Shown here in pieces: positions 6,983 through 64,000 of a stretch of DNA of 64,000 nt. Each line of letters begins with the position of its first letter. Positions within the stretch are counted from its first letter, which is position 1. Under the pieces are notes generated by a model. That model saw nothing but the letters and a program-made list of their open reading frames with translations, searched no databases and had not been told where the DNA came from. The DNA comes from Minisyncoccia bacterium (lineage in GTDB: Bacteria; Patescibacteriota; Minisyncoccia; Phycocordibacterales; UBA5272). The stretch lies in contig JBDHUS010000001.1 of the NCBI GenBank assembly GCA_039809325.1, positions 391 through 64,390 of the forward strand. The letters are read 5' to 3'. The position numbers were made by a program, and so were the translations under genes.

Positions 6983-6998
6983 TTTTACAGTTTTAAGG

Positions 6999-9744: not shown

Positions 9745-9798
9745 AGGTTTGTGGCAGAATTTATATCTAAAATTATACCATGATTATTTTCATTTTTT

Positions 9799-10392: not shown

Positions 10393-10417
10393 CAGACGCG
10401 TTATTTTTATTGACTCC

Positions 10418-11302: not shown

Positions 11303-11311
11303 ATATCTTTA

Positions 11312-12682: not shown

Positions 12683-12729
12683 ATTTTAAATAAAAAGATT
12701 TCATAAAAATTATATCATATTTTATGAAA

Positions 12730-13260: not shown

Positions 13261-13315
13261 AATATTTATATAATATAGTTTATCATAATAATATGATACT
13301 CGAATAATCTTTATT

Positions 13316-15802: not shown

Positions 15803-15814
15803 AGTTTTTATAAT

Positions 15815-15870
15815 TTAATAAAAGAAAAAATGCTATATTTATATATAAATTATAGCATTTTTAAAATAGA
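15815..15870 (-). terminator. hairpin terminator downstream of the tailspike-like gene (AATGCTATA/TATAGCATT inverted repeat)
   Basis: Perfect 9-bp inverted repeat flanked by T/A runs between 15886 and the gyrA start. Confidence 0.4.
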
Positions 15871-15885
15871 TTTGAAAGTTAAAAA

Positions 15886-39463: not shown

Positions 39464-40048
39464 TTATATCATGCTATGATTTAGTACAAAAACAATATGC
39501 TCCTTGACTTCTTTTTCATTTAAGAGAAAGTGCGTAAAAAAATCTTTCATTTCAAAATTTTTGTATTCTATAATATCTTTCACCCCTATAACTTTTGCAT
39601 CAGCATATCCTGTGTCTACAAGCACCAAATAATAAATCAATATTTTTAACTTAAGCGGGTCCATCTGGGTAAGACCATTTGAACAAATCGTTAAAAATTT
39701 TAACTTTTCAAAAAGCTTTTTATATGTTTTCTTTTCCTCTAAGAATCTACTTATTGTTTCAGAGATTAATGATTTTATTTCAGAAAAATATTGTGAAGTG
39801 CCAAGATTTTCTTTTATCTCTTCTACCCCAGTGAGTCTCCAAATATCTTTTCCTTTTACAAGAGTCATATTTAAAAACTCATTTTTTTTAGCATTCATGC
39901 GGAGCTTGGCATTTATTTTTCTTATACTTCTTGCAAGTACAAAAATAATACCAAAATCTTTGGTCCAAACTTTATAAACAAGATCATTTTCGTCTTGTGC
40001 ATATTCTTTCAAAATAAAAGCTTCAGTTGTGTATTTTTCAATGGACAT
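39464..40048 (-). CDS. possible short RecO-like protein
   Basis: The N-terminal OB-fold-like pattern EAFILKEYAQDENDLVYKVWTKDFGIIFVLARSIRK resembles the RecO N-domain. Confidence 0.35.
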   Translation of the reverse strand: MSIEKYTTEAFILKEYAQDENDLVYKVWTKDFGIIFVLARSIRKINAKLRMNAKKNEFLNMTLVKGKDIWRLTGVEEIKENLGTSQYFSEIKSLISETISRFLEEKKTYKKLFEKLKFLTICSNGLTQMDPLKLKILIYYLVLVDTGYADAKVIGVKDIIEYKNFEMKDFFTHFLLNEKEVKEHIVFVLNHSMI

Positions 40049-43000: not shown

Positions 43001-43500
43001 TAAAGCTCAGAAAAAGCCCACCAGACTGACTCTGTATAATTTGGATCCATTGTGCTGTATGGATTTTCCATATCTATCCATCTACCAAATCTTGGTATTG
43101 TTTCTTTCCATTCTTTTTCATATGCAAATACACTTTCTTCTGCTTTTTTATTAAAATTATTTATTCCAAATCCTTCTATTTCTTTTTTAGAATTTAATTT
43201 AAATTTCTTTTCAATCAAATTTTCAATCGGAAGCCCATGTGTATCCCAACCCCATACACGACGAACATATTTACCATTCATGGTTTGAAATCTTGGTATT
43301 GCGTCTTTTATTGTTCCAGCTAAAAGATGGCCATGATGAGGAAGACCTGTTGCAAATGGAGGCCCGTCATAAAAAGTAAAACTTTCTGGATTTTCTACCT
43401 CACCGGGATTCTTAAGAGATTTTTCGAATATTTTATTCTCTTTCCAAAATTTTAATATCTCTAATTCTTTTTCGTTTATACTTTTGTTTTTATTATTCAT
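40048..43500 (-). CDS. ileS: isoleucine--tRNA ligase with an inserted histidine-phosphatase (PGM-like, RHG) domain; start moved to MNNKNK
   Basis: HIGH (PHHGHLLAG), WDTHGLPIE, WTTTPWTLP and KMSKS (GEKMSKSKRN). A roughly 185-aa insert (aa 520-705) carries YYIMRHGEAKHN and LIVTHGGPMR. Confidence 0.9.
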   Translation of the reverse strand: MNNKNKSINEKELEILKFWKENKIFEKSLKNPGEVENPESFTFYDGPPFATGLPHHGHLLAGTIKDAIPRFQTMNGKYVRRVWGWDTHGLPIENLIEKKFKLNSKKEIEGFGINNFNKKAEESVFAYEKEWKETIPRFGRWIDMENPYSTMDPNYTESVWWAFSELYKKGLVFEGYKSMHICPRCETTLAQSEVAQGYKDLTDISVTAKFELENEPNTFLLAWTTTPWTLPGNVALAINEKFEYIKAKAESGEIYILAKERAEEVFKKVNLNVEIIETFFGEKLVGKKYKPVFDYFINSKLENKENIYIIVNGEFVSLDTGTGIVHIAPAFGEDDLNLSKEKSLPVIRHVEMNGEFTKEVIDFPRVKVKTKDDNQGADILIIKSLASRGLIFAKEKLIHAYPTCWRCETPLLNYATSSWFIKVPEIKSELLKENSKVNWIPENIRDGRFGKWLEGARDWAVSRSRYWGAPIPIWKNKNGNEIKIVSSLEELAKENINKPKNQYYIMRHGEAKHNVLGIEETDMDPDNHLTENGIEQVKKAREEIGIDFDIIISSPYLRAFETAKIMAEEKEVIIDEHFTEINLGTYSKKPNTEIEKDYGINYLNLDLKLGGGESHNDVIKRVMKGIYELENRYEGKNILIVTHGGPMRMIAFAGELITKEKLIEDELTEETKLYPKNAEIRKLDLKLVPRDETGKINLHKPYIDNIKLLGENKEELERIPDVFDCWFESGSMPMAQIHYPFENQNIFNKNFPADFIAEGLDQTRGWFYSLLNISVGIFEKSPYKNVIVNGLLTAADGEKMSKSKRNYTDPMVLVEKYGADAFRQTLLSSPAMCAENIPFSDANVEETYKKVVAKLENVLSFYEMLNIELPPKERKIENPMDIWIFTRVAEVLEIVTKNMNEYKLDQATRPLEKFIDDLSTWWLRRSRERLKGESGEEEKMNAEFTLYKILNEFSKIIAPFMPFLAERIYLSINKYTLEKKESAHLEAWPKNIFVIDEKVIEEMDEVRALVTEALMQRQKNNIPVRQPLSKLFINKKIDKKYLDILKEEINVKEALLDNTKEYFENQNVILDLEITQELKKEGDYRELTRKIKDLRKDKNLTPSDIAVLFVESGKERIDFIKSLEEELKKDCKLSIIKFIEGNEEKISLEN

Positions 43501-43504
43501 AATT

Positions 43505-43745
43505 TTGATTGAAAATTTGTTAATAAATTCTTTAAATTTTTCTAAAATAAAAATCACCCAAAACTCTTTCAAGTTCAAGGGCGATTTTGTCGCGGTACCA
43601 CCTTGATTCCAGAAAATATTTCTGCTTCATTTATGAGGGTCTATTTGGAGCGACACCTCCGGCGTCGCCCCTTTCTTCCTCAAGCTCTGGAGTGATTAGT
43701 TCCGTCTCTGCTTTATACTTTTATTATATCAAAAAATATAAAAAT
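43505..43745 (-). promoter_or_regulatory. T-box leader upstream of ileS
   Basis: - The minus strand reads AATCAAGGTGGTACCGCGACAAAATCGCCCTTG, matching the T-box consensus AAUNAGGGUGGNACCGCG with its antiterminator.
- The competing terminator is AAAATCGCCC...GGGTGATTTT followed by a U-run.
- An AUC (Ile) triplet followed by A lies upstream (CUAAUCACU). Confidence 0.55.
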
Positions 43746-50053: not shown

Positions 50054-51217
50054 TTAATTTTTATTTATAAGATTCAAGACTATATTTTTATCTAGACAAA
50101 CATCTTGCGTATTTATAATATTAGTACTAGAAGCAATATCTCTAAAGCATACACTTTCTGAATTTAAAATATTAAGAATAGTAGTAGTGGAGAAAGGAAT
50201 AATATCTTGTGTATTGTCTGTATATTTTATCAAGAATCCTGTCGAAGTAGCGTCAACACTAAGTATTCCACGTCCATTTTTCCCAGCGGGTCCTCTTTGT
50301 GATATGTATTTTATTATTGTTTTTTCTTCTGCTTTTGAATTCTTGTATTTTTCTAATTCATTTTTCAAGTTATTTATTTCTTTTTTTAATTCTTCAATAT
50401 TTGTATTATTTACTAAGGCTCCATTATTTGTATCATTTTTTTCTAAAATATTTGAAGTATTTGAAGAAGAGCTGGTCGTAATCTTATTGTATTCTTCAAT
50501 ATTATTTTGAATAGTATTATTTGGAAATGTATTTACTTTAATAGAATTTTTATCATTTTCTACTATTAATCTATCCGTCTCTTTTATATTAAAAAAACTT
50601 TTATTCACATATTGATTAAACTCTGGTAAAAACATATAAGCTGAAAGAATACTTAATACGAAGAATAATAAAATATAAAACAAAATCTTTCCTGCCCTAT
50701 TGCTTCTTTTTTCTTTTATTTTTCCTGTACCTAAGGATTTTCCATATTCCTCGGATGTTGAAGAAAGAAAACTATTTTCTAGAGTATTATTATCTTTTTC
50801 TTTTTTAATATTTAGAGAATAAGGAGCGTTTAAGTTCTCTTTATTCTCGTTTATTATTTCAATATTTGTAGGAATTGTGTCTTTTGTATCATTTTCCATA
50901 GAAAAAACTTTATTTTCTTCTGTGTCTTCTATATTTCTTTTTAAATTAAAAGAATATGGATTATTTGAAGAGATTTCATTCTTTTCTTCTGTTTTACTCT
51001 CTTCTTCTTTTTTTTCAGTAATATCTAAAATGTCCCTTCTAAAAGATATTCCCTTAATATTATTTTTATTTCTAGTGCGAAATATTCTAAGTCCTTCCAT
51101 TATATCCTCTCTGTCCCAACCGCTAGCAGAAAGTAAAGTCTTTAAAGATTCTTCTGTAAGACTTTTATTAAGACTCATTATACGCTCCATTACATCTTCT
51201 ATATTCTGAATTGTCAT
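50054..51217 (-). CDS. hypothetical membrane protein with Asn/Ser-rich regions
   Basis: 387 aa with one central TM helix and a short GPAGKNGRG collagen-like triplet. Confidence 0.3.
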   Translation of the reverse strand: MTIQNIEDVMERIMSLNKSLTEESLKTLLSASGWDREDIMEGLRIFRTRNKNNIKGISFRRDILDITEKKEEESKTEEKNEISSNNPYSFNLKRNIEDTEENKVFSMENDTKDTIPTNIEIINENKENLNAPYSLNIKKEKDNNTLENSFLSSTSEEYGKSLGTGKIKEKRSNRAGKILFYILLFFVLSILSAYMFLPEFNQYVNKSFFNIKETDRLIVENDKNSIKVNTFPNNTIQNNIEEYNKITTSSSSNTSNILEKNDTNNGALVNNTNIEELKKEINNLKNELEKYKNSKAEEKTIIKYISQRGPAGKNGRGILSVDATSTGFLIKYTDNTQDIIPFSTTTILNILNSESVCFRDIASSTNIINTQDVCLDKNIVLNLINKN

Positions 51218-51328
51218 AATGTATTATCTATTATTTATATTTCTATTATATCTCATATACATAGATAATATTTGATTTTTTATCTCTTATGTGGATAATT
51301 GATATATTTTAATGCTATTATATATAAT

Positions 51329-52084
51329 ATGTTTAAAAAATATTTTTACTTAGTCCGTCATGGTGAGACTATTTTAAATAGTCAAAAAAGAAGACAAGAC
51401 GATAAAGGTAGACTTTCTGAAAGAGGTATGAAAGAAGTTGAAGATTTAGGTAACAGACTTCTTAATATGCATATAGAGAAAATGTTTGTTTCTCCGTATG
51501 AAAGAACAATGGAAACAGCGAAAATAATCAATAAATATTTAAAATTAAAAGAAAACAGGATTATAATCACAGATCTTATAGCTGAAAGAAAAAATCCGTC
51601 TAATATTATTGGTTTACATTATGATGATCCGATTGCCAAATCTTTTATAGATAGAATGGATAAAAGTATTCATGATCCAAATTTAAGAATTGCAGACGAA
51701 GAAAATTTTCAAGATTTGAAAGAAAGAGCAATAAAAGCTCAAAAATTTTTAATAAATAATAGTAAGAAATATAATTTGTGTGTTACTCATGGAATATTTC
51801 TTAAAATGTTTTTATCAACTCTTTTGTATGGTAAAGATTTGAGAGTAAAAGATTATATACAAATGAATTTATATAATCCTTCGGATAATGCTGGGGTAAC
51901 TTTTATTAAATATTCCCCTCTTAAAAATTTCTTTATGCCACTACGAAAATTTTTCGACTCAATCTTTGGTGATGAAGTAGATGGCGATGATGATGGAAAT
52001 CCTAAACCTGACAAATATTCACCTTGGGAAATTCTCGCCTATAATGATTATACAAGGGACGGATTTAAAAGACTTCGTATTTAA
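51329..52084 (+). CDS. histidine phosphatase family protein (PGM-like); start moved to MFKKYFYLVRHGE
   Basis: LVRHGET and CVTHGIF motifs. Its architecture resembles the domain inserted in IleRS. Confidence 0.65.
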   Translation: MFKKYFYLVRHGETILNSQKRRQDDKGRLSERGMKEVEDLGNRLLNMHIEKMFVSPYERTMETAKIINKYLKLKENRIIITDLIAERKNPSNIIGLHYDDPIAKSFIDRMDKSIHDPNLRIADEENFQDLKERAIKAQKFLINNSKKYNLCVTHGIFLKMFLSTLLYGKDLRVKDYIQMNLYNPSDNAGVTFIKYSPLKNFFMPLRKFFDSIFGDEVDGDDDGNPKPDKYSPWEILAYNDYTRDGFKRLRI

Positions 52085-52219
52085 CTTGCATTTTTAGGAG
52101 TTTATGTTTATATCTAAATATATAGAATGTTCATATTATATTTTTTAACATCATTCTTAACTAAAAAAATTAAACTCAAAAAAGCCAGACCAAAGTCTGG
52201 TTTTTATATTTCCAAAAAA

Positions 52220-52264
52220 TAAAGGGGCGGCGCCTTCGGCGCCGCCCCTTTATTTTTTTATTTT
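52220..52264. terminator. bidirectional GC-rich terminator (AAAGGGGCGGCGCC-TTCG-GCGCCGCCCCTTT) serving tRNA-His and the 51329 gene
   Basis: Seen directly in the sequence; T/A runs lie on both sides. A second hairpin (CCAGAC-CAAA-GTCTGG) sits at 52185-52205. Confidence 0.6.
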
Positions 52265-52270
52265 CTACCT

Positions 52271-52346
52271 TGGTGTGCCTATCCGGATTCGAACCGGAAC
52301 TGAGGGCTCCACAAACCCTAGTGCTAACCATTACACCATAGGCACC
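52271..52346 (-). tRNA. tRNA-His (GUG) with encoded G-1 and CCA
   Basis: - The reverse complement is GGTGCCTATGGTGTAATGGTTAGCACTAGGGTTTGTGGAGCCCTCAGTTCCGGTTCGAATCCGGATAGGCACACCA.
- It folds into a cloverleaf with anticodon loop TTGTGGA (anticodon GTG) and T-loop TTCGAAT.
- An extra 5' G precedes a 7-bp acceptor stem, and the discriminator is A. Confidence 0.85.
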
Positions 52347-52442
52347 ATACTCTAACTTTTTGTTAGACTACTATTCTAACAAAAAAATACGAAAAAATCC
52401 ACCTGTCAAATCAAACTTCTAAATATTTCTCAAATCAAATTT

Positions 52443-52983
52443 TTAACTTACTCCATTATCTATTTCCCCTTCATAAATTATATAATCTACTTTTTCAAAA
52501 ATGTCTTTATCTAGATTTTCGAGATTTGTCATATAACTTTCCCCTGACTTGTTTACTGAAGTTGTTACAAATGGAGCATTTGATTCTTTTATAAATTCAG
52601 TAAACCACACATCCGGAATTCTCACCCCTACACTTTGATTATTATCTTGTGGATTGATAGCTGTAGCTATAGAATTTTTATTTTTTAAACTTAAGAAAAA
52701 TGTATATGGTCCAGGAAGTAGTTTTAATTTTTCTTCTGCTTCGCGATTTACTACACAATTTTCAAAAACAAAATTAATATCGGGAACAATAATTGAAAAA
52801 GGTTTTTCGTCTCTTTCTTTTATTTCTCGAATCCTCGAAACCGATTCTTCAATCAAAGCATTTGTACCGATTCCATAAATAGTATCAGTTGGATAAATAA
52901 AAATCTTACCTGCTTTTATAGCTTCAATAATTTTTTCTTTATTTATTTGAAAAACAGTATTCTTTGTCTATTATTTTATCCAT
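52443..52983 (-). pseudogene. tsaC: L-threonylcarbamoyladenylate synthase (TsaC/YrdC/Sua5 family) with an apparent +1 frameshift near the 5' end
   Basis: - The body encodes ...KIFIYPTDTIYGIGTNA...VGVRIPD...TSVNKSG.
- The ATG at 52981-52983 is in a different frame and hits TAA after 14 codons.
- Deleting one T from the T5 run at 52950-52954 restores a full-length protein. Confidence 0.5.
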
Positions 52984-53328
52984 AAATAATTATTCATGAG
53001 TTTCGTTATTTTACTGTGCCCCATCTCGGTCTATAACTTTTTTATATAAAGAAGTAAAAGAGTTCTCAAAGAGAGATAAGAAACAAATTAAGTGACACTT
53101 CGGTCTATCCCTAATATTGTTGATAGTATCATAACATATTTTTGTTGATATGTATACCTAACCCATAAAACAAATTTATAAAGGTTATTAGGATTTTATT
53201 TTTATAATGACTCACCTAGGTCTATAACTAGACAAATGCCAACAAATGCCAATTTTTTGAAATAATAAAATAAGGTGTAGATTATTCTTAGATACCTAGT
53301 CAGTATCATAAATATAATAGATAAATAT

Positions 53329-53994
53329 ATGGAAAATAGAAAAGAAACAGTAGAAAAAGTAAAAGAACTTTATAGAGAAAATGATGAGGAGATTACAGAT
53401 GAAAAAGCTGAGGAAGCAACTAATAATTTAGTTGGTCTTGTTAATCTTTTGTTTGAAATGAGTATGACAGAATCAAGAAGAAAAAAGAGATTAAAATCTG
53501 AACCAGACGGATTTCCAGTAGACGGTATGTATACATGTTTAGTTTGTAAAAATGGAATAAATGAAAATACTGGTTGGTATAGTTGCTATGGAAACACTTG
53601 TTTTAATTGTCTTAAAGCTTTAAAAGAAAAACTCATACCAAAATATATTCTAGATGATAGTAATAGTTACTTTACTATGTATGATCTAAATTCAACTTTT
53701 AATATAAAAACTCAACTTGCTAAAAAATATATAAAAGAAGAAAAGCTGATTCCAAGAATTATTTTAGATAATGAGGGCAAATCTTATTATTATATTTTTC
53801 TTAAAAAAGAAAATCCTGCTTTAATAAAAAGATATTCTCCTACTAGAAAATCTTACGATAGACATCGTAATAAAAAATTAAAAAAATGGTCTAGAGAGAC
53901 AGAGAAAAAATTAATTGATGACTTAAGAAAAAATAGAGAAAAACAAAGAAAGCAAATAGTTAGAGATAGATATGGAAGAGAAGTTGTTTTATAA
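53329..53994 (+). CDS. hypothetical protein with a Cys4 zinc-ribbon-like motif
   Basis: CLVCKNG...CYGNTCFNC; a charged, Lys/Arg-rich C-terminus. Confidence 0.3.
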   Translation: MENRKETVEKVKELYRENDEEITDEKAEEATNNLVGLVNLLFEMSMTESRRKKRLKSEPDGFPVDGMYTCLVCKNGINENTGWYSCYGNTCFNCLKALKEKLIPKYILDDSNSYFTMYDLNSTFNIKTQLAKKYIKEEKLIPRIILDNEGKSYYYIFLKKENPALIKRYSPTRKSYDRHRNKKLKKWSRETEKKLIDDLRKNREKQRKQIVRDRYGREVVL

Positions 53995-54032
53995 AAATTA
54001 ATATTTTTATTTTATAGAGATATATTTTAATT

Positions 54033-54551
54033 TTACTTAAATTTCATAATTCTAGAATTTAAAAGTTTTATAGTAAGAACTTCTTTGCTTACATTATATT
54101 TTTTCGATAAGAAATCTAGATTAGAATTTTTATTATAATCCTCCTTAAGGAATTTTTTAGGAACTAATAATTCTCCAGCAAATAAATCGGCTTCTGATTC
54201 ATTTATTTTTGACTTAGGGTCGTCATAATCATTACAGGAGTATCCTAATAATAAATGTCCTATCTCATGAGCAATTGTAAATCTATTACGAACCCAAGGA
54301 TGATTTTCATTAAAACCTAAAGTATAAACTTCTTCATCATAGATATCTATTTCTTTTTTTAGAAAACCAGAAACTTCATCCTCTAGTTTATTAGACTTTA
54401 AGATTTTTAGATCATAATTATCTTTAAGATAATTTAAAATATTCCATAAGCTTATAGGAGTTTCAATAATCTTACAAGACTTTAATAAATTTGAAACTTC
54501 AGCTTCTATAAACTTCTTTCTAGGTTTGTCTTGAAAATTATCTTCTTCCAT
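54033..54551 (-). CDS. ImmA/IrrE-family zinc metallopeptidase (DUF955)
   Basis: HEIGHLLLGY (HExxH) together with ESEADLFAGELLVP. Confidence 0.65.
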   Translation of the reverse strand: MEEDNFQDKPRKKFIEAEVSNLLKSCKIIETPISLWNILNYLKDNYDLKILKSNKLEDEVSGFLKKEIDIYDEEVYTLGFNENHPWVRNRFTIAHEIGHLLLGYSCNDYDDPKSKINESEADLFAGELLVPKKFLKEDYNKNSNLDFLSKKYNVSKEVLTIKLLNSRIMKFK

Positions 54552-54554
54552 AAA

Positions 54555-54887
54555 TTATTTATCTAGTTTCAAAATGTTTTGAATAACTTGTTTAGTCTTT
54601 GGCGATATAGATTTATCAGTTCTTAAAGCAACTTGAATGTCACCTGTATATTTAGAATCTTTACCTAAGAAAAAATAAATATCTTTATGTAAAACCTCAG
54701 CTATCTTTTCTAGATTCTCTGCGGTTATCTTTCTACTTCCCGATTCTATTAAAGATATCGCTGTAGAAGATTCGAAGTTTAAAGCTTTAGCAAGATCGGT
54801 CTGAGACACACCTTCTTCTTCTCTTGCTTTCTTTATTTGTCCACCAATAAACTCTGCTTTATTATTATTATTTTTCATATATTTCAT
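54555..54887 (-). CDS. XRE-family helix-turn-helix transcriptional regulator
   Basis: Cro/C1-type HTH (QIKKAREEEGVSQTDLAKALNFESSTAISLIESGSRK), paired with ImmA. Confidence 0.7.
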   Translation of the reverse strand: MKYMKNNNNKAEFIGGQIKKAREEEGVSQTDLAKALNFESSTAISLIESGSRKITAENLEKIAEVLHKDIYFFLGKDSKYTGDIQVALRTDKSISPKTKQVIQNILKLDK

Positions 54888-55042
54888 ATTGATATGATAG
54901 CATTTTCAAAATGATTTGACAATATATTTTCAATTTGCTATACTTAATATATCAAAATGATAAATAGATTTTTATTACTTTATTATTTTGATAACCTTTA
55001 TAAAAACAAATTAATTTAAATTACAAATATATATATAAATAT

Positions 55043-55315
55043 ATGAATACATTAATAATTTCATATGATCTTAAAAAGCCAGGGAAAGATTATACGAAAG
55101 TGCACAATTATATACAAAGTTTTCCTGAATGGGCTAAACCTTTAGAATCTTTCTATATTATAAAAACTAACTTAACAGCACAGACGGTTATAAACCAACT
55201 TCTTCAACATGTTGATTACAATGACAAAGTAATTGTTATAGACGTCAGAAATAACTTTGCTACATGGAATAATCTTCCTTCAGAGATCTCTGAGTGGATT
55301 AAAATCAATTTTTAA
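55043..55315 (+). CDS. hypothetical small protein (weak Cas2/VapD-like ferredoxin-fold pattern; no CRISPR nearby)
   Basis: 90 aa (MNTLIISYDL...LESFYIIKT). Confidence 0.25.
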   Translation: MNTLIISYDLKKPGKDYTKVHNYIQSFPEWAKPLESFYIIKTNLTAQTVINQLLQHVDYNDKVIVIDVRNNFATWNNLPSEISEWIKINF

Positions 55316-55319
55316 TTAT

Positions 55320-55718
55320 ATGCAAACACAATTAAAAATCAGTCCTTATATCCCCAAAAAAGGAAATAAGACTATACGGATAACATTAACGAATATACAA
55401 TTACACTCATCTGTAAAAAGACAGACACCTTCTGTTGGAAAATCTATAGGTAAATCTATACAAAACAATGAAGAAGGAAGAATATATTTTTCTTCTCCTA
55501 AATTTGAAAAAACATCTGAGGAGAATAAAATGAAGATATCTATAGAAGATATAATTTCAAAAGATGAAAATTTAATGAAATTAGTTCAAAATTATCAATC
55601 TCAAGGTATACATGTTATAATAGAAATACCTAAAGAGATACCAATATTCTTAGGTAAAGACACGAAAGAATTTTTTGACAGTAAAAACGGAAAAAGAATC
55701 TTTCGTAAAATGAAATAA
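55320..55718 (+). CDS. hypothetical protein (start moved to MQTQLK)
   Basis: The in-frame ATG at 55320 avoids overlap with the 55043 gene. Confidence 0.3.
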   Translation: MQTQLKISPYIPKKGNKTIRITLTNIQLHSSVKRQTPSVGKSIGKSIQNNEEGRIYFSSPKFEKTSEENKMKISIEDIISKDENLMKLVQNYQSQGIHVIIEIPKEIPIFLGKDTKEFFDSKNGKRIFRKMK

Positions 55719-55892
55719 AACAATTGATTAGTTAATCAATGCGTAGTAAAAAGTAGAATAGAGTATCGCCTAAAAACCATGCCTATTCCGCGCAAGAAAT
55801 AGCAGGATTCGGACCCCTATTATTTCGTGTGTGGAATAGGCATTTTTCTATTTCATACATTTTATTAAAAAATAAATAAATTTAATAAAATT

Positions 55893-57206
55893 ATGCAAAA
55901 TAAAAATAAAGACCAAAAATTATCTTGGTCAATCACAACAAAAAATGTTTCTCAATTATTAGGCGCATCATACAACCCTCGTAAGATGTCAGAGAGTGAG
56001 AGAAGAGATCTAGAAGATTCTATTAAGAACTTTGGAACAGTAGTTCCTATAGTTCTAAATATTGGAAGTAGAGAGAATATATTAATTGGAGGTCATGCCA
56101 GAATTTCTATTTACGCCGATCTTGGTATAGAAGAAATTGAATGTATGATCCCCTCTCGTGAGTTAGATGAAAATGAAGAAAAAGAACTCAACCTGAGACT
56201 TAATAAAAATACAGGATCTTGGGATGAAGAACTTTTGAAAGCATTTGATCTCAATATGCTTCTAGAAGTAGGTTTTGGAGATGAAGAATTACAAAATATA
56301 TTTGATGATATAGATTTAGCAGAAGATGACTTTGATTTAGAGAAAGCTATTAAAGCTACCCATATTGATAAAGTAAAAGATGGGGAAATTTATGAGCTCG
56401 GAGAAAATAGATTACTCGTAGGAGATAGTACAGATGAAGTTAAAGTTAAAGAATTAATGCAAGAAGATAAAGCAGATATAGTTTGGATGGATCCAAACTA
56501 TGGTATAGGTTTAGATTACAATAAAGGTTTAGGTGGAAAATCTAACTATGGTGGAACTCTATCTAGTAAAGATGATTCCAAACCAGAAACAGAATACTCT
56601 CAATTTATTAATAAGAGTATGGAAGTTGCTAAAAAGTTTGTTAAAGATAACAGTCACTGGTTCTATTGGTCAGATCCAAATAGTATAGGATTAATCCAAA
56701 GTTTGTATGATAAGAATAAGATAGAAAAAAGAAGAGTCTGCCTTTGGATAAAATCTAACCAGAACTGTACTCCGAAAATTGCATGGAACAGACTCTATGA
56801 ACCGTGTATATATAGCACTATTGGGAAACCCTACCTAAATAATAATTTCAGAAATGCTAATGAGATATTTAATCAAGAAGTAAGTACTGGTAATCAAGTC
56901 TTAGACGAAGCAGGAGAAATGATAGATCTCTGGCTAGTTAAACGTGATAATGTGCAGAGATATTTACATCCGACCCAGAAGCCTGTAACTCTAAACGAAA
57001 AACCCCTCAAAAGATGCTCTGCACCCGGACATATAGTCTTCTCTGGTTTTGCAGGTAGTGGTAGTGATTTAATTGCTTGCGAAACTTTGCAAAGAAAATG
57101 GCGTGGAGTAGAAAAAGATCCTATCTTTGCAACTATCATTATTGATCGATGGGAAAAGTTCACAGGTAAGACAGCAAAATTATTAACTAATAATAAATCT
57201 AACTAA
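55893..57206 (+). CDS. ParB-like nuclease domain fused to a beta-class amino (N6A/N4C) DNA methyltransferase
   Basis: N-terminal ParB/Srx motifs (YNPRKMSE...GGHAR). The MTase part has motif IV DPNY before motif I FSGFAGSGSD. Confidence 0.75.
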   Translation: MQNKNKDQKLSWSITTKNVSQLLGASYNPRKMSESERRDLEDSIKNFGTVVPIVLNIGSRENILIGGHARISIYADLGIEEIECMIPSRELDENEEKELNLRLNKNTGSWDEELLKAFDLNMLLEVGFGDEELQNIFDDIDLAEDDFDLEKAIKATHIDKVKDGEIYELGENRLLVGDSTDEVKVKELMQEDKADIVWMDPNYGIGLDYNKGLGGKSNYGGTLSSKDDSKPETEYSQFINKSMEVAKKFVKDNSHWFYWSDPNSIGLIQSLYDKNKIEKRRVCLWIKSNQNCTPKIAWNRLYEPCIYSTIGKPYLNNNFRNANEIFNQEVSTGNQVLDEAGEMIDLWLVKRDNVQRYLHPTQKPVTLNEKPLKRCSAPGHIVFSGFAGSGSDLIACETLQRKWRGVEKDPIFATIIIDRWEKFTGKTAKLLTNNKSN

Positions 57207-57210
57207 ATAT

Positions 57211-57960
57211 ATGATAGACATTAAAGTAAAAACTGGTGAGATATATAAAGTGGGAGAAAATATTATTGCTTGTGGTGATTCTCTTGATAAAGAATTTGTA
57301 GAGAAAGTTATTGGAGAGCACAAGATTAAGTGTGTACTTTGCGATCCTCCCTACGCCGTAGCTTATGGTAAAAATATAATGAATAATATTTCTAAAGATA
57401 AAGAAATATTAAATGATCATCTTCAATCTGAGGATGAATACAAAGAATTTACTAAAGGTTGGTTATCTTTAGTTCTTCCTCATCTTACCGAATACAATGC
57501 CTGCTATATATTTAATTCTGATGCAATGTATTCAGCTTTAAGATTAGCTATTAAAGAAGTAGGTCTTTATTATTCTCAAATGCTAATTTGGGTTAAAGGA
57601 CAACCGGTTATGGGTAGAAAAGATTATCTTCCTCAGTTTGAATTGATAGCTTATTCATGGTTTGGAAAACATAAGATGGAAAGGAGTAAAGCTAAAAGTG
57701 TACTCTTTTATCCTAAACCTCAATCATCTAAACTTCATCCAACAATGAAGCCTATTGGATTATTAAGAAAGATTATTCCAAACTCTACAAGATATGGAGA
57801 ATATATCTATGACCCATTCTTAGGTAGTGGATCTACTCTTATAGCCTCTACAGAACTTGGTCGAAAGTGTATTGGAATTGAGATAGAACCTGAATATGTA
57901 GAAGTCTCATTGCAGAGAATAGAGAAACTAACAGGTCTTACTAGAGTAAAGATTAATTAA
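57211..57960 (+). CDS. beta-class amino DNA methyltransferase (N6A/N4C)
   Basis: DPPY motif IV (LCDPPYA) precedes motif I (DPFLGSGST); homologous to the MTase part of the upstream gene. Confidence 0.75.
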   Translation: MIDIKVKTGEIYKVGENIIACGDSLDKEFVEKVIGEHKIKCVLCDPPYAVAYGKNIMNNISKDKEILNDHLQSEDEYKEFTKGWLSLVLPHLTEYNACYIFNSDAMYSALRLAIKEVGLYYSQMLIWVKGQPVMGRKDYLPQFELIAYSWFGKHKMERSKAKSVLFYPKPQSSKLHPTMKPIGLLRKIIPNSTRYGEYIYDPFLGSGSTLIASTELGRKCIGIEIEPEYVEVSLQRIEKLTGLTRVKIN

Positions 57961-57967
57961 TAAATTT

Positions 57968-58333
57968 ATGAAGGAAGCACCTTATAAATCTCAAGATTTT
58001 GAAAGCTATGTTCTTTGGAAGAGTCTTCCTTCTATTTTGCGTGGACAGCCAAGAGCTATTCTAGAAAAACAAGGAATTGATGATGAACTAGCATTAGAGT
58101 TATTACAAGTAAAAACTCAAAAAGAGTTTGCTATTAAATTTGGAATTAAAGATGCAGGAACTCTTACTGATTGGAATAAAAGAATAGAAAAGGAAGGACT
58201 GCTGAAAGAGATTAATAGTTGGGCAAGAAAACTTACTCCAAATGTTGTTCATTCACTCTATAAAAATATTATTAAAAACGGTAAAGCTCAAGAAGTCAGA
58301 GCTTGGTATGAATTAATTGAAAACAATAATTAA
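57968..58333 (+). CDS. HTH protein, possibly terminase small subunit-like
   Basis: The HTH-like segment KTQKEFAIKFGIKDAGTLTDWNKR resembles TerS N-domains. Confidence 0.3.
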   Translation: MKEAPYKSQDFESYVLWKSLPSILRGQPRAILEKQGIDDELALELLQVKTQKEFAIKFGIKDAGTLTDWNKRIEKEGLLKEINSWARKLTPNVVHSLYKNIIKNGKAQEVRAWYELIENNN

Positions 58334-58532
58334 AATTATTACAAATATTAATTTAAAAGAAATAAATGAAATACTTTCAAAAACTTTAATAGATGTGGTT
58401 GAAAGAAAAGTATCTTTAAAGCAAGCCGATATGATAGCTAAACTAGCTACTGCCCTATCGAAAAATATATCAAATACAGAACTCGAGGATAGGATTCAAT
58501 TATTAGAAAGAGTATTAAAAGAAAGAATATAA
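58317..58532 (+). CDS. hypothetical coiled-coil ORF overlapping the previous gene by 17 nt in another frame
   Basis: 71 aa, helical (LKQADMIAKLATALSKN...LEDRIQLLERVLKE). Confidence 0.25.
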   Translation: MKTIIKIITNINLKEINEILSKTLIDVVERKVSLKQADMIAKLATALSKNISNTELEDRIQLLERVLKERI

Positions 58533-58537
58533 AATAT

Positions 58538-59494
58538 ATGAAAGGATTAACAAAGATATTAAATAAAGACACATTATCTGGTAAAGACAGAGCTTTACTT
58601 TTAATTTACAGTAGTATAGAAAAAGAAAAGAATGGAAAAGCTATTCTAGAAGAACATGATATTACAGCAATTAGAAGTTTTAATGATATTAAAATAAAAG
58701 GACCAGATGGTAAGTTAAATTATTTTAAAAGAAATAGAGTTATTGATGAATTCAATCTATACATTGAAAACATGAATAGTTTTCAAGAAGTCAGAGCTCA
58801 AATAAAAGTTATCTATTTAGATTTACAAAATAGGATCAATAAAGTTGGAAGAGTAATTGATCATTTTGTCTGGAAAGAAAATCCTGATTTTAAAAATATT
58901 GATAAATATATATTAGAAGAAGAAGGTGTCTTAGATCTAATCTTAGATAATACATATATAGTCTATGAAGATCTTATTAATGAGATAGACGATAAAGAAA
59001 AGAAAGCTATTGAAGAACTGATTAAGAATCAAGAAATAGAGATCGTAAACAATAAAGACGGAATATCTCTCATCACTGGTAGGAGTATATATAACCTAAA
59101 AAGTGAGCATGAATTCAAAAAGGATTACTTAAACGAAATTGATAAGTTAAAAGATTTCTTTAAGATTATTTGGTTTATAAAAGAAAGAAAAATAGAAGAA
59201 GATTATTCTAATTTCTTGAAATTTAAAAACATAATGGAAAAAGCTTCAGAATTCTTTGAAATAGAATTAGATGGAGAAATCAAAGAATACATAGAAGAAT
59301 TAGAAGATGATTTTAGAAGTATGAATATCTCCTTATTATACATCTTTGAGAAATCAATTAAAAATTGTGTATCTTTATCTATACCGCTAGAGATAGATTT
59401 TGATAAGATACTGCTAAGAAATAATATTGAAACAGAAGATTCTAAAATCTATCTAAAAGCTTTAGATCTTTTGAAAGATATATTTATAGATTAG
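58538..59494 (+). CDS. hypothetical protein
   Basis: 318 aa, acidic; no recognisable motif. Confidence 0.3.
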   Translation: MKGLTKILNKDTLSGKDRALLLIYSSIEKEKNGKAILEEHDITAIRSFNDIKIKGPDGKLNYFKRNRVIDEFNLYIENMNSFQEVRAQIKVIYLDLQNRINKVGRVIDHFVWKENPDFKNIDKYILEEEGVLDLILDNTYIVYEDLINEIDDKEKKAIEELIKNQEIEIVNNKDGISLITGRSIYNLKSEHEFKKDYLNEIDKLKDFFKIIWFIKERKIEEDYSNFLKFKNIMEKASEFFEIELDGEIKEYIEELEDDFRSMNISLLYIFEKSIKNCVSLSIPLEIDFDKILLRNNIETEDSKIYLKALDLLKDIFID

Positions 59495-60245
59495 TTATTT
59501 CTTCTTTCTTTTCTTCTGTAAGAACTTCCACTTTTTCTTCTTTTGCTTTTGGTATAGATTTAGTAGTATTAGTCTTCATCTTTGGTTTTGGGACATCTAA
59601 AGCTAAAACTATTATTTGATAAATAGAATCTAATATATCTTCATTAGAAAAATTAACTCCAGTTTTAGTTTTAAGATTCTTTTTAAGAAGTTTGATAACT
59701 GATTCATCAAAAAGATATTTAGATAAAGATAATGGAGATAGACTATCTATCTTTTTCCAATATTCATCTAAAAGATTTTTATTAATAGACTTTTTAGTTA
59801 TTAATTCAAATAGATTAAAACATTCTTTATAACTAGAATCATTTAATAAATCTATATCAAATACTAATTTAGAAAAGACTGGTTTAGCAAACATTACTTT
59901 GTATAATTGAAAATTACGACCATTTAAAAGTAATATCCAATCAATACCCTCACCTGCGGCATAACCTAGACTTTGTCTTAAATGACTATCACTTAATTTT
60001 GTTCCCAGTGATTTTACTTCAACGACTATTTTCTTTTTCTTACCTATTTGGATAACATAATCAGCATAACCTCCCCCTATCTCATATTCTGTTTTGATTT
60101 CTTCATTTGGAATATATCCTAAGACATTTCTTAGAAAATCATTAACTAAAAGTCTAGTTCCACTCTCATTAAGTTTTGGATTATTTTTAAATGCTATAGT
60201 TAGTTCTTTTTTATAATCCTTGATTTCATCTTTAAAAGTTTTCAT
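59484..60245 (-). CDS. PD-(D/E)xK nuclease-like protein (HsdR_N / restriction-endonuclease-like fold)
   Basis: GGGYADYVIQIGKKKKIVVEVKSLG fits the D...E-x-K core of HsdR_N-type domains. Confidence 0.45.
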   Translation of the reverse strand: MKTFKDEIKDYKKELTIAFKNNPKLNESGTRLLVNDFLRNVLGYIPNEEIKTEYEIGGGYADYVIQIGKKKKIVVEVKSLGTKLSDSHLRQSLGYAAGEGIDWILLLNGRNFQLYKVMFAKPVFSKLVFDIDLLNDSSYKECFNLFELITKKSINKNLLDEYWKKIDSLSPLSLSKYLFDESVIKLLKKNLKTKTGVNFSNEDILDSIYQIIVLALDVPKPKMKTNTTKSIPKAKEEKVEVLTEEKKEEITNL

Positions 60246-60249
60246 ATGA

Positions 60250-60711
60250 TTAATTTTTAGCTTTATCTTTTAATTCATCTAAGACCTTTTTTAATTCATA
60301 AGGTTCAGAGATATATTTTAAAACTACTTCTTTACCTCCTGTCCCTGCTGTATCGATAGCGATAGCTCCAGTCTTAAAAATAACTCTATCTAAAAATGGT
60401 TCTCTGATAAGAACATCAGTAATCTTATGATAATCAATACTTACTAAACTTGTAGAAAGCCAACCTTTGTGTATTAAAACTCTTTTATTTGTAAAAGCGT
60501 AAGCATTTGCTCTTTTGATATAGAAAAGGAAATAGAAAAGATGAAAAATTAAAAATGGAATTCCTATGAAAGCAAAACTTAAAAGACCCCATATTATTAT
60601 TCCAGCTATTAAGCTTATCTTTATATATTGCCCACTTATAGAAAATTCTTTTTCTATAACTTCATCTTTTGACAAAACTTTTTTCCAAACATTTTCGTTA
60701 GTTGTTTGCAT
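60250..60711 (-). CDS. membrane-anchored bacterial PH-domain (bPH_2/YdbS-like) protein
   Basis: Two TM helices followed by YAFTNKRVLIHKGWLSTSLVSIDYHKITDV. Confidence 0.5.
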   Translation of the reverse strand: MQTTNENVWKKVLSKDEVIEKEFSISGQYIKISLIAGIIIWGLLSFAFIGIPFLIFHLFYFLFYIKRANAYAFTNKRVLIHKGWLSTSLVSIDYHKITDVLIREPFLDRVIFKTGAIAIDTAGTGGKEVVLKYISEPYELKKVLDELKDKAKN

Positions 60712-61017
60712 AAATTTGTAGCGGTTTTAATTTTTAATATCTAAATGAGTCTCTCTGACAAAAGACTCTCCACCATTGCGATTCTTGTTTCCAAGAACCC
60801 ATATCCGTTTCCAGATATGACCGCTACAGTGACTCTGATGGAGAGTCTTTTATACTGTAGCGGATATTTTCTAACCATGCCTAGCAAATGCTAAGTTTAG
60901 GCTATTTGTAATAATATTTTAGCATAAATACGAGAGTATTTATAGCATTGTGTATCTTAGCTTAAATAAAGGAAAAATAATAACGTGAATGCTAAGATAA
61001 TGCTAAAAAAAGAAAAA

Positions 61018-63132
61018 CTATCCCTCCACAACTTGTCTGACTTTTTCTGCTAGTTTTTCCGAAAATTCTTTTATATTAACATTTGCTATATTATCTGAAT
61101 AAAATGTTTTAACATGCTCAGTACCTGAACCTATACCAAGCCCAATAATATGAACATCTTTTTCCTGTTCTATCTTTTTTACTATTTCTTTCAAATCATA
61201 TCCTTCATGCTGTGGAGACTCTACTGGAACACCATCAGATAGCACAAATAATATTTTCTTTTTTTCTTCTCTATTTTTTATTTTCTTATACATTTCGTCC
61301 ACAGCCCATCCATCATCATTATAATCTGCTCTACCACCACTATGATTATCAACTTCACTTAACATATCTTCTGTACCCTCTCTAAGATCATCAGTATAAT
61401 CTTCGTCAAATTCTTTATATTCATATAGTCTATCATTAAATCCTGCCACAGATAATTTAATCCCTATATTTCTAAGAGCTTCGCAAAGGACTACTACAGC
61501 CTTATAAGTTTCACTGATTTTCGTACCACTCATACTTCCAGATAAATCTACCAATATTTGAATTGCGTAGTCTTTTTCTAAAGGTAATTCTTTTTTCATA
61601 AAAACGTTTAGACTGTCTACTCCTGTGGCTTCACCTCTAATTTCTCTTTTTACGTCTATCATCATTCCACTTCTATAACCAGAATTCCAAGCGTTTCTTT
61701 TTCTCTCAATAAAAATATCTCTTAATTCATTTTCTAACTTAAATATTATGGGAGATACATCTTCAAGAACCTTTTGGTAACTATTTTGTCCATTATATTT
61801 TTCTCTATCAAAATCTTTTTTAGCTTTTTCAATAGCTTCCTTTAAAGCTTGTCTCATTTTATCTCTTCTTTCTCTCTCATTATCTTTTGAGTAATCTTTT
61901 TCTTCTCTTTGAGATTTATCATCTTTGGATTTTTCTTCCGAATCACTACTTGTTTCTTTCTCTTTTTGTAGTTCAGCTTTAGATTCTAAGTATTCATTCA
62001 TCTCTTTCTCTATTTCTCTAATTATTTGATCTGCTTTTTCTTTTATTTCTTGATCAGACATTTTAGAAGGATTGGATTTATTATCTTGAATATCTGGATC
62101 ACTTAGAGTAGAGTTTACATCTTGTTGTGAATTTTCATTTTGTTTATTAGATTTTTCTCCATCCATATTATCAGGTCTTTGTTCTTCTTCAGTCTTATTA
62201 GAATTATCTTTAGTTTCACCTTCTTTACTTTGTGGTTTCCGATTATCTTTTTCACCCTCTCCAGAATTTTGCTCTTTATTTACTTCTTGATTTTTATTTT
62301 CACTTTTTTGATTATCATCTTGTCTTATTTTATCTTCTGTGTCCTTTGTATCTGAATCAACTAAAGTTTTAAAAACAGGCCAGACTTCTTCTAGATTTAT
62401 TTTATATGACTCTCTAGCATACTCTTGTACGACTTGCTCTCCATCTAATTTTTCTCCATTTAACAGCATACCTTTCTCTACCTCTTTTCTAAGTGGATAA
62501 GTTAGCCAACTTCTTCTTGCAGAACTAAGAGTTTTTTCTACCACTTCTATTACTTCCTTTGGAAGTTCTTTGTCTATTTCTATCTTTTCTCCTTTTGTCT
62601 CAGCAATCCATTGCTTTATGTATTCAAGTCCTGCTTGCATGAATCTGGGGACTCTTCCAACTTTTTGTTTTGCTTTTTCTTTCATTTTTCTTTCAAATTC
62701 AGCATCGAGATCATACGAAAATATCATCTCTTGCTTAAACTTTGGTACATTGTCGGCGACATAGTTATTCATCCTAGGATCTTCTATTGCATTCATCATA
62801 GAAGAAAACCCTGGTTGATTCCATATTTCATCTGGAATGATACCTATAACCCTAGAAATTTTTCTATGTCCAGCTTCATGTTGAATAACAAAACGTAGAT
62901 AATCAATTGGTTTTTCCAATAAATCTTTTGCGTCACACCTCACAATATTATTCTTAAAATCCCAATGCCAACCTTGACCCTCATTAACCTCTACCTTCAT
63001 ACTTACATCAGTTGCTACCATTCTACAAAGTGGAGTCAACAAAGATAATCTTTGTTTTATTATTTTTCTGTCTTCATAATTAAAATTATCAAGAATACTG
63101 TGTTTTTTACCAAAAGATTCTAATCTGTCCAT
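61018..63132 (-). CDS. vWA-domain protein with an N-terminal HExxH (DUF2201_N-like) domain and a long acidic low-complexity linker
   Basis: HEAGHRK; roughly 250 aa rich in E/K/D/S/N; C-terminal MIDAS motif ILVDLSGSMSG ... VLSDG. Confidence 0.6.
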   Translation of the reverse strand: MDRLESFGKKHSILDNFNYEDRKIIKQRLSLLTPLCRMVATDVSMKVEVNEGQGWHWDFKNNIVRCDAKDLLEKPIDYLRFVIQHEAGHRKISRVIGIIPDEIWNQPGFSSMMNAIEDPRMNNYVADNVPKFKQEMIFSYDLDAEFERKMKEKAKQKVGRVPRFMQAGLEYIKQWIAETKGEKIEIDKELPKEVIEVVEKTLSSARRSWLTYPLRKEVEKGMLLNGEKLDGEQVVQEYARESYKINLEEVWPVFKTLVDSDTKDTEDKIRQDDNQKSENKNQEVNKEQNSGEGEKDNRKPQSKEGETKDNSNKTEEEQRPDNMDGEKSNKQNENSQQDVNSTLSDPDIQDNKSNPSKMSDQEIKEKADQIIREIEKEMNEYLESKAELQKEKETSSDSEEKSKDDKSQREEKDYSKDNERERRDKMRQALKEAIEKAKKDFDREKYNGQNSYQKVLEDVSPIIFKLENELRDIFIERKRNAWNSGYRSGMMIDVKREIRGEATGVDSLNVFMKKELPLEKDYAIQILVDLSGSMSGTKISETYKAVVVLCEALRNIGIKLSVAGFNDRLYEYKEFDEDYTDDLREGTEDMLSEVDNHSGGRADYNDDGWAVDEMYKKIKNREEKKKILFVLSDGVPVESPQHEGYDLKEIVKKIEQEKDVHIIGLGIGSGTEHVKTFYSDNIANVNIKEFSEKLAEKVRQVVEG

Positions 63133-63164
63133 ATTAGCTTGATTATAACATACTAACCATAATC

Positions 63165-64000
63165 TTATTCTAGATAAATAGATCTTTTAATTTTATAACA
63201 ATTGCCCCATTTTAAAAGACCTTTATATGAATTTTTATTATTTTCATTTAGGTTTTTTACCATCTTTATTTTTGTTGTCTTTCTTAGGATTCTGTATTTT
63301 GGGAAATTTATAAAACCTAGAAAATCCATTCCACTATAGACTGTCCTAATAATTTCCTTATGTACTACCAAGTGTAAATGTTCAAGACAAAATGTTTTTA
63401 ATATATATCTAAATTCTTCTGCTTCTTGAAGAGAATCAAAAAAACATACTATATCATCTGCATACCTAATATAATATTTAATTTTACAAATATGTTTAGA
63501 GAAGAAGTCCAACTCATTTAAATAAACATTTATAAATAATTGGGAAGTTAGATTTCCTAAGGCCAGTCCTTTTTCTTGGCTAAATATTATCTCCCTACAT
63601 AAATTGATAATATCTTTGTCAGAAATATATTTTGATAATATCTTAATTAAAATATCTTGATCTATACTCTGGAAACACTTTTTTATATCAAACTTCAAAA
63701 CCCAAGCTTGCTTTGTATAATTCAGAGTTATCTCTCTAGAAAATTTTTCATATCTAAGTATAGCTTTATGTGTACCTTTAAATTTCCTAGAACTATAGGA
63801 ATCATAAATAAATCTTTTATCAAAATAATCGTATAAGAAATTATATACCAATTTGTGAACTATTCTGTCTATAACAGTAGCTTTATTAATCAATCGAGTT
63901 TTTGTATCGACTATTTTAAAATTTGTATAAGGCCCATGTTTATATGAATTATTTTTCAAATCTTTAAATATATCAAATAATTGATCACCAGATTTAAAAT
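63165..64000 (-). CDS. diversity-generating retroelement (DGR)-type reverse transcriptase; 5' end beyond the window
   Basis: - YKHGPYTNFKIVDTKTRLI ... IDRIVH ... DSYSSRKFKGTHKA (RT motifs 1-2).
- KGLALGNLTSQLFINVYLNELD, the (I/L)GxxxSQ signature.
- YADD catalytic motif.
- The frame stays open upstream of the TTG at 63959 through to position 64000. Confidence 0.8.
   Translation of the reverse strand, partial: FKSGDQLFDIFKDLKNNSYKHGPYTNFKIVDTKTRLINKATVIDRIVHKLVYNFLYDYFDKRFIYDSYSSRKFKGTHKAILRYEKFSREITLNYTKQAWVLKFDIKKCFQSIDQDILIKILSKYISDKDIINLCREIIFSQEKGLALGNLTSQLFINVYLNELDFFSKHICKIKYYIRYADDIVCFFDSLQEAEEFRYILKTFCLEHLHLVVHKEIIRTVYSGMDFLGFINFPKYRILRKTTKIKMVKNLNENNKNSYKGLLKWGNCYKIKRSIYLE

Follow-up and report, generated by a model that had tools for sequence, protein, structure and literature searches.

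The left arm of a probable serine-integrase mobile element beside tsaC in a candidate-phyla-radiation-like bacterium, and a recurrent genomic context for the LOOT RNA

Mobile elements of candidate-phyla-radiation bacteria are poorly characterised. We report the analysis of a 64,000-nucleotide stretch of DNA (the window), in which core genes give way, next to a gene of the YrdC/TsaC family, to an accessory block. It is likely that the DNA from position 53015 to beyond position 64000 represents the left arm of a mobile element of the integrative kind, and that this element is integrated and excised by a 436-amino-acid large serine recombinase (LSR), the gene for which stands at the far end and beyond the window. 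Available here are the recombinase, an empty site with both junctions, and ends known to the base; recent movement between sites in natural populations is supported, and the case is directly testable. The host is probably, judging by sequence, a Patescibacteria/Paceibacteria-like (candidate-phyla-radiation) bacterium, since the relatives of the HIT protein described below and of the element's reverse transcriptase (RT) are so named in their sources.

The left end of the element was located by looking up the exact 221-aa protein, the first encoded beyond tsaC, in public assemblies, which returned six contigs. From 53015 onwards to the right, L005 and L006 match the window with 100% identity, and L008 matches it with 99.9% from 53016 on; leftwards of these positions none of the three is related to it. 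Three left contexts of the element are thereby seen: tsaC in the window, a HIT gene (in L005 and L006, with a left flank of HIT, a 323-aa gene, IscS and NifU) and a third locus in L008. The tsaC junction of the window was found again in L009 and L011, in a single sample (ERZ27298980) the tsaC junction (L011) occurs alongside that at HIT (L005), and the contigs with the left breakpoint come from assemblies of different pipelines. An initial annotation of the window had described an accessory, mobile block starting at 53329; its mobile nature is borne out by the near-100% identical sequence at one exact base in three host contexts, with an empty site for one of them, and its start is moved to 53015 by the homology breakpoint.

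The left end of the element reads TGTGCCCCATCTCGGTCTATAAC and lies 30 nt from the ATG of tsaC in the window and 8 nt from that of HIT in L005. Within it a 16-nt end motif, CAYYTNGGTCTATMMC, occurs in three direct copies within 215 nt of the end; there is no further exact match in the 64 kb, where 0.75 would be expected even allowing two mismatches. Similar motifs, CTTCGGTC and TCTCGGTC, lie upstream of the gene for the 221-aa homologue in L058, and a 22-mer from the left end had no match in IMG/VR or in the JGI metagenomes. In L005 (3791-3809) the gene caller lengthens HIT by six codons (MGHKKF), placing its ATG inside the element end (proteins P0137 and P0190), and the element may supply upstream signals for the flanking HIT gene. 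P0190 looks like a recombinant of two HIT alleles.

HIT variants that lack the MGHKKF extension (P0188 and P0189) led to contigs in which tRNA-Tyr(GTA) stands directly before HIT. This is the empty site; it reads ...CCAACCCGGCGCACAAAGATT-ATG and is present in at least nine contigs. With a 53-aa open reading frame (ORF) upstream of tRNA-Tyr as the search handle, we then recovered the far junction of the element on L045, L046 and L053, where tRNA-Tyr is followed by ...GGCGCACA/CGATAGTTAGACAGACCGG..., the slash marking the junction. The comparison of presence and absence among other genomes, which had been proposed as a check, yielded the empty tRNA-Tyr/HIT site as well as the differing left flanks. 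tRNA-His had been named as the likely insertion landmark, a suggestion that does not survive: it lies 670 nt away, beyond tsaC, and the demonstrable empty site is a tRNA-Tyr 3' end at another locus.

About 140 nt beyond the far junction, on the opposite strand, lies the gene for the 436-aa LSR. The protein consists of Resolvase, Recombinase and Zn_ribbon_recom domains, matches the PHROG integrase family phrog_95 (E 1e-61) and, by sequence, the SPbeta YokA/SprA and A118 integrase structures, and shares no more than 28% identity with the integrase of any deposited phage. An integrase had been predicted to lie beyond position 64000, and the LSR on L045, L046 and L053 answers to that prediction. 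In L046, about 55 nt inside the far end, the 16-mer CACCTAGGTCTATAAC is identical to the third repeat of the window's left end, and the likeness between the two ends spans about 28 nt. The sample behind L046, ERZ27298990, yielded contigs from the interior of the element as well (L010 and L015).

The recombination sites can be read from these junctions. The empty tRNA-Tyr/HIT site gives attB as GGCGCACA/AAGATT, the tRNA-side junction is GGCGCACA/CGATAG and the HIT-side junction GGGGCACA/AAAAGT; from them attP would read ..GAGATGGGGCACACGATAG.. and the circular attP is predicted as ..GTTATAGACCGAGATGGGGCACACGATAGTTAGACAGACC.. All four att sites carry the core GCACA, and the core at the left junction of the window is common to attB and the tRNA-side junction. 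Because the third context (L008) reads GGGGCACC, the exchange is placed within GCAC. At the tRNA-Tyr/HIT locus the empty site and both occupied junctions were recovered with no target duplication, and the copies of the end repeat are all in direct orientation across the core. We infer that the window copy occupies a secondary site, 30 nt upstream of tsaC.

In a related organism the tRNA-Tyr/HIT site is occupied by another element, about 10.4 kb long and flanked by GGCGCACA (L037, about 6260-15937, together with L020; contig ERZ27248697 k141_285780). It encodes a 556-aa serine recombinase, a MutH-like protein, a C5 methyltransferase and a 504-aa RT, and was rejected as a relative of the window element, with which it has no protein in common. 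As an unrelated element has entered the same place, the site is an integration hot spot. In L024, L025, L031 and L037 a variable tandem duplication, of a tRNA-Tyr 5' fragment and spacer, lies upstream of the intact tRNA-Tyr, and many contigs break there; it may be the scar of earlier integrations.

The element had been taken as an island of about 11 kb within the 64,000 nt, which is too short, for it continues past the end of the window. Between 56204 and 64161 the window is collinear with contigs of five other samples, it contains no further boundary or end motif, and the source contig, of 65,082 nt, stops within about 0.9 kb upstream of the RT gene. A template repeat of a diversity-generating retroelement (DGR), to which class the RT belongs, would be expected just upstream of that gene, and a repeat there would be a plausible cause of the assembly break. 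An exact look-up of the full RT (P0001) gave no record. In total the element is at least about 13 kb long.

Relatives of the element tie the recombinase to its left arm. Scans of IMG/VR with the 318-aa and 221-aa proteins as single queries returned nothing, and the relatives in IMG/VR and JGI were found by searching with alignments of the 221-aa family, which has 231 representatives (E <= 1e-3). All four IMG/VR loci encode an LSR 51-57% identical to the 436-aa protein together with a ParB-methyltransferase, and a fifth locus was reached via a recombinase search. Among the 34 JGI loci many have a 221-like gene followed by the ParB-methyltransferase, with the LSR about 7-8 kb away where the locus is long enough. 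This co-occurrence of the 221-aa protein, ParB-methyltransferase and LSR independently ties the recombinase to the window arm. The shared backbone comprises a Zn-ribbon/helix-turn-helix (HTH) protein, a repressor module, the ParB-methyltransferase, a TerS-like HTH protein, LOOT-led cargo and the LSR. The best-resolved relative, L085, is about 10 kb long, with about 8 kb from the 221-like gene to the LSR, and is collinear with the window element: a rightward 221-like gene, leftward genes for a LexA/S24 repressor and a helicase, a rightward series of ParB-methyltransferase, methyltransferase and TerS-like HTH protein, a leftward unit of LOOT RNA and membrane protein, and a rightward LSR. L054 and L058 also carry TerS with a TerL-like ATPase, an anti-repressor, a KAP NTPase and DUF2779. 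In two JGI loci group I introns score above the Rfam threshold near the 221-like or recombinase genes (L080, 14535-14862; L092, 4014-4231).

The 221-aa protein itself has a confident AlphaFold model (pLDDT 90.6). Its winged-helix part finds its best local fold matches, all of them weak (E 0.17 or worse, probability 0.93), in BldC and P2 Cox-like proteins; proteins of the BldC and P2 Cox type are MerR/Xis-like binders of direct repeats. There was no match to the protein among GenBank phages. We regard it as a candidate accessory or directionality factor, or as a candidate regulator binding the end repeats.

A full-length LOOT RNA (Rfam RF03000) lies in the window between the vWA and bPH genes, with a -10-like hexamer, TGCTAAAAT, upstream and no terminator, and is probably the 5' leader of the bPH cassette. 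LOOT has been described from metagenomes as an RNA whose six helices comprise about 43 base pairs (PMC7779021, PMC7657543); neither a function nor a genomic context for it is given in the searchable literature, and the main text of PMC5737381 is silent on it. It scores above threshold in all four of the IMG/VR relatives scanned, in ten JGI relatives and in L018 (the loci besides the window being L018, L054, L056-L059, L065-L067, L069, L070, L074, L079, L085 and L092), and in nine of the ten scanned loci that show an LSR. In all 12 loci that can be oriented by the 221-like gene it lies on the strand opposite that gene, the sole exception to the rule being L092, where the 221-like match is weak (E 1e-5). 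In L054, L065 and L085 it lies about 150-200 nt from the recombinase start and is divergent from it.

Most LOOT copies have a -10-like hexamer upstream, in many followed by a stretch resembling TTAACAAnTTAAT. A same-strand ORF follows LOOT in each of 14 copies; ten start 15-85 nt downstream and the other four, as called, overlap its 3' end by 16-32 nt. These downstream ORFs are mutually unrelated, most having an N-terminal hydrophobic segment and two being PD-(D/E)xK-like by motif. L018 (1-12789), from a related organism, shares with the window the promoter, LOOT, bPH and the 5' part of the nuclease-like gene at 85% nucleotide identity (59748-60967), its surroundings otherwise differing: there the cassette, with its truncated nuclease-like gene, stands beside a T5orf172/MUG113 protein, NYN-domain fragments and housekeeping genes. 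In L017 the L018 allele and the window allele seem to have been recombined.

We suggest from these arrangements that LOOT is the leader RNA of a moron-like cargo cassette; that it acts on recombination or on the lysis-lysogeny decision itself is much less likely. More tentatively, and at somewhat under even odds, we propose that the window element (at least 13 kb) and its relatives (about 10 kb in the best-resolved case) belong to a family of small serine-integrase elements, not described before, that occurs in Patescibacteria and further uncultured bacteria, with a conserved backbone in which LOOT would be the promoter-proximal leader controlling variable cargo, mostly membrane or exported and PD-(D/E)xK-like proteins, and which in the simplest elements places LOOT about 150-200 nt from the recombinase gene. 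These loci provide a first genomic context for LOOT, recurrent in an element family and just upstream of a variable gene, and with it the orphan motif gains a testable role.

The features of the element and its flank are collected in Table 1. The gene content given by the initial annotation was largely correct, the Zn-ribbon protein, the ImmA/IrrE and XRE pair, both methyltransferases, the bPH protein, the VWA/HExxH protein and the DGR RT all being matched, and the strand switches at 55043 and 59484 are real; the LOOT RNA and the 132-aa ORF had been omitted. Three of its assignments stand in part. The ORF called Cas2/VapD-like is real, by its phrog_1090 match, but its likeness to Cas2 is weak; the direct TerS-like match of the 121-aa protein is weak, but relatives carry a TerS-like HTH protein in the equivalent position; and the PD-(D/E)xK assignment of the 253-aa protein falls below threshold in the domain searches but is accompanied by a strong phrog_17239 match.

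Table 1. Features of the left arm of the element and of its host flank, in window coordinates
Feature	Position	Strand	Remarks
tsaC/YrdC-family gene (host flank)	52443..52985	-	5' frame break; ATG 30 nt from element end
Left att junction, core TGTGC (reverse complement of GCACA)	53015..53019		Breakpoint 53015/53016 in L005, L006 and L008; host DNA leftwards
End motif, three direct copies (16 nt)	53022-53037, 53096-53111, 53213-53228	+	Within 215 nt of the end
Zn-ribbon and MerR/Xis-like (HTH_17-type) DNA-binding protein, 221 aa	53329..53994	+	Four invariant Cys among homologues
ImmA/IrrE metalloprotease	54033-54551	-	Peptidase_M78, E 6e-17
XRE repressor	54555-54887	-	HTH_3, E 1e-13
Promoter-like sites, back-to-back and overlapping	54894..54944		Consensus matches only
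Small early ORF, 90 aa	55043-55315	+	phrog_1090, E 2e-24; Cas2 weak, E 0.003
Small early ORF, about 132 aa	55320-55718	+	
Long hairpin (about 26 bp), then U-run	55779..55845	+	Minimum free energy -44.4 kcal/mol; z-score -7.3
ParB_N and N6_N4 DNA methyltransferase fusion	55893-57206	+	
Second methyltransferase	57211-57960	+	
TerS-like HTH protein, 121 aa	57968-58333	+	phrog_24579 weak, E 0.005
Small ORF (64-71 aa) and 318-aa protein	within 57968..59494	+	
PD-(D/E)xK/HSDR_N-like protein, 253 aa	59484-60245	-	PD-(D/E)xK and HSDR_N sub-threshold; phrog_17239, E 5e-45
bPH_2 membrane protein	60250-60711	-	
LOOT RNA (RF03000), full length	60780..60903	-	83.8 bits (gathering score 46.4); model positions 1-121 of 121
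704-aa protein, N-terminal HExxH (HEAGH, residue 85), C-terminal VWA/CobT_C	61018..63132	-	
DGR-type RT, cut by window end	63165..64000	-	Full protein 350 aa, start about 64217

The XRE and ImmA/IrrE proteins also match PHROG repressor and metalloprotease families, and between their genes and the rightward operon the promoter-like sites read TTGACA-17-TATACT on the plus strand (11 of 12 consensus positions, with TG) and TTGTCA-17-TATCAT on the minus strand. The hairpin ahead of the methyltransferase operon is likely a terminator or an attenuator. No restriction enzyme is adjacent to the two methyltransferases. The 318-aa protein has no family match and its single-sequence model, made without an alignment, is poor (pLDDT 37); neither it nor the 121-aa protein shows pairwise similarity to the TerL-like and TerS-like proteins of L058. 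Searches of PDB sequences with the 90-aa and 253-aa proteins gave nothing meaningful. The RT carries the motif LGNLTSQ, in agreement with the [LIV]GxxxSQ criterion for DGR enzymes, and matches phrog_1423 (E 2.5e-82). No DGR template/variable repeat pair or target gene was found in 51000-64000, and these probably lie in the unassembled stretch.

On the host side, the DNA is bacterial with about 28% GC and encodes tmRNA, NusG, L11, IleRS, ArgRS, ThyA and DHFR, the core genes extending as far as tRNA-His (52271-52345, minus strand) and tsaC. The 5' end of tsaC (52930-52985, minus strand) is out of frame with the body of the gene, in a T/A run. The frameshift had been recorded in the initial annotation, and its unchanged recurrence in two independent assemblies of other samples, three assemblies in all, shows that no assembly error is involved; the break marks either a true pseudogene, a start variant or a programmed shift. 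Searching GTDB genomes for the tsaC flank gave matches of 46% (archaeal-labelled) and 31%, and no useful synteny. The isoleucyl-tRNA synthetase (40048-43578, minus strand; 1176 aa) contains an inserted His_Phos_1 (histidine-phosphatase) domain at residues 530-677 (E 5e-32), and a separate stand-alone His_Phos_1 gene lies at 51329-52084.

Several points weigh against reading the block as the arm of an LSR-mobilised element. Serine-integrase att sites typically have inverted half-sites, whereas the repeats on either side of the core are in direct orientation here. Of the window's own tsaC context the left junction alone was recovered, with neither a right junction nor an empty site, and the host at the HIT locus may not be the same genome as the host of the window. 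The unit of LOOT, bPH and nuclease-like gene also occurs outside such an element, in L018, so that a portion of the block may have been nested or exchanged as a module. Finally, the left arm and the recombinase end are not joined on any single contig, and what lies between the RT start and the LSR is unseen. The gene that adjoins the recombinase (121 or more aa, no family match) points toward the RT, and the link between arm and recombinase rests on the shared 16-mer, on sample co-occurrence and on the conserved co-occurrence in relatives.

That unseen stretch could be of any length, and were it to hold virion and lysis genes the element would be a complete temperate prophage, its DGR diversifying a tail fibre as in Bordetella phage BPP-1. 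The lysogeny-type switch, the TerS-like HTH protein and the DGR RT would all suit a prophage, IMG/VR labels the relatives as viral, and two of them carry TerS with a TerL-like ATPase. We nevertheless judge this improbable. There is no Pfam or PHROG family match to capsid, portal, tail or TerL in the 11 kb of 53015-64000; the interval between the 221-like gene and the LSR in L085 is about 8 kb, and the ORFs tested within it have no virion-family match, just as no capsid, portal or tail match was found among the ORFs tested in the relatives at large; and no deposited phage genome matches, megablast of the island against GenBank phages returning nothing and the LSR and 221-aa searches among phages giving no close relative of the element. 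Because virion genes are lacking from the visible part and from the relatives examined, the element looks satellite-like or cryptic rather than a complete prophage. XRE/ImmA and ParB-methyltransferase modules had been called hallmarks of phages and of integrative and conjugative elements; they do form part of the backbone of a prophage-like family, but the conjugative half of the claim falls away, with no family match to a relaxase, coupling protein or type IV secretion system in the visible part.

Considerably less probable is a fixed, host-owned variable region or defence island, the left contexts of which would result from chromosomal rearrangement between strains. In its favour the composition does not shift: third codon positions have a GC fraction of 0.18 in the island against 0.16 for the core, codon-usage z-scores of single genes run from -1.9 to +1.6, and the tetranucleotide distance is raised marginally only, so that a GC and codon-usage shift, which had been offered as a check, is not there. 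The genes are defence-flavoured (methyltransferases, a nuclease-like protein, an RT), and the bPH/nuclease-like/LOOT unit recurs in another context. Against this stand a breakpoint that is base-exact in three contexts, with near-100% identity on its inner side, the clean empty site with both junctions at the tRNA-Tyr locus and the recombinase at the far end. Defence-like content, as initially suggested, is weakly supported: PADLOC finds no complete defence system, returning orphan or type II methyltransferase and generic RT models together with weak matches to Cas2 (E 0.003) and mad2 (E 3.5e-6). A DDE transposon of Tn7 or Mu type, raised by an end that begins TGTG and by three spaced repeats within 215 nt, which could be transposase-binding sites, and compatible with three insertion contexts, is scarcely credible and was rejected: the far end bears a serine recombinase and not a DDE transposase, the far-end repeat is direct and not inverted, the site for which an empty form can be shown is the 3' end of a tRNA, and the sharing of a core between junctions and empty site, with no target duplication and with direct repeats across the core, rules it out.

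For an LSR-mobilised element the following scheme may be put forward. For attP the LSR would use the tRNA-Tyr 3' end as partner, as well as looser secondary sites like that near tsaC, and the 221-aa Zn-ribbon/Xis-like protein, binding the direct GGTCTAT repeats that flank the core, would help to set directionality. The XRE repressor and the ImmA antirepressor-protease, acting over the back-to-back promoters, would decide between lysogeny-like maintenance and induction. After induction the rightward operon of ParB-methyltransferase, second methyltransferase and TerS-like HTH protein would act, the methyltransferases self-methylating the element's DNA against restriction and the operon possibly handling DNA for packaging. 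The leftward block would be cargo, consisting of the DGR RT, the vWA/HExxH protein and a promoter-LOOT leader driving the bPH and PD-(D/E)xK-like proteins.

Parts of this organisation have counterparts in known systems. The RT differs from candidate-phyla-radiation DGRs in that no template/variable repeat pair or target gene lies within the window, and resembles them in its LGNLTSQ motif, its strong phrog_1423 match and its 50-57% identity to Patescibacteria RTs. In the ImmR/ImmA switch of ICEBs1 and phage phi105 an XRE-family repressor gene stands beside that for an M78 (ImmA/IrrE) metalloprotease, divergent from the element operon. The XRE/M78 arrangement of the window is alike, and repressor cleavage would be expected by the same comparison, whereas the relative L085 has a LexA/S24-type repressor instead. 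Satellites resembling phage-inducible chromosomal islands are small, as are the element's relatives, and share with the element a terminal integrase, a repressor module with divergent promoters, a weak TerS-like protein and no visible capsid or tail genes; they differ in having a tyrosine rather than a serine integrase, and in the window element no primase or replicase is recognised. No helper phage is known and two relatives carry a TerL-like ATPase; the status of phage satellite is offered as an analogy.

The recombinase invites two further comparisons. Durrant et al. (2022) regard an LSR as fully multi-targeting when the target gene clusters it hits number more than three, and found DUF4368 to be common in the multi-targeting TndX/TnpX-like clade (PMC10083194). 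The window element differs from these in its three contexts, in that DUF4368 was not detected and in that one site is a classical tRNA 3' end, but is like them in that one recombinase/element pair is found at several unrelated loci sharing a short core (GCAC) and A-rich flanks. From the prophages and elements with serine integrases (SPbeta SprA/YokA of Bacillus, A118 of Listeria, phiC31 of Streptomyces, and Bxb1) it is set apart by an integrase identity of at most 28%, the absence of visible virion genes, its direct repeats, at least three insertion contexts in one population and a probable candidate-phyla-radiation host. It is like them in its three-domain recombinase, in att sites that share a short core only and in a separate small DNA-binding protein that is a plausible directionality factor. 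The element is a new family member within a known kind of element, and its serine integrase, for which an attP/attB pair is defined and secondary sites are apparent, is of interest to collections of integrase tools.

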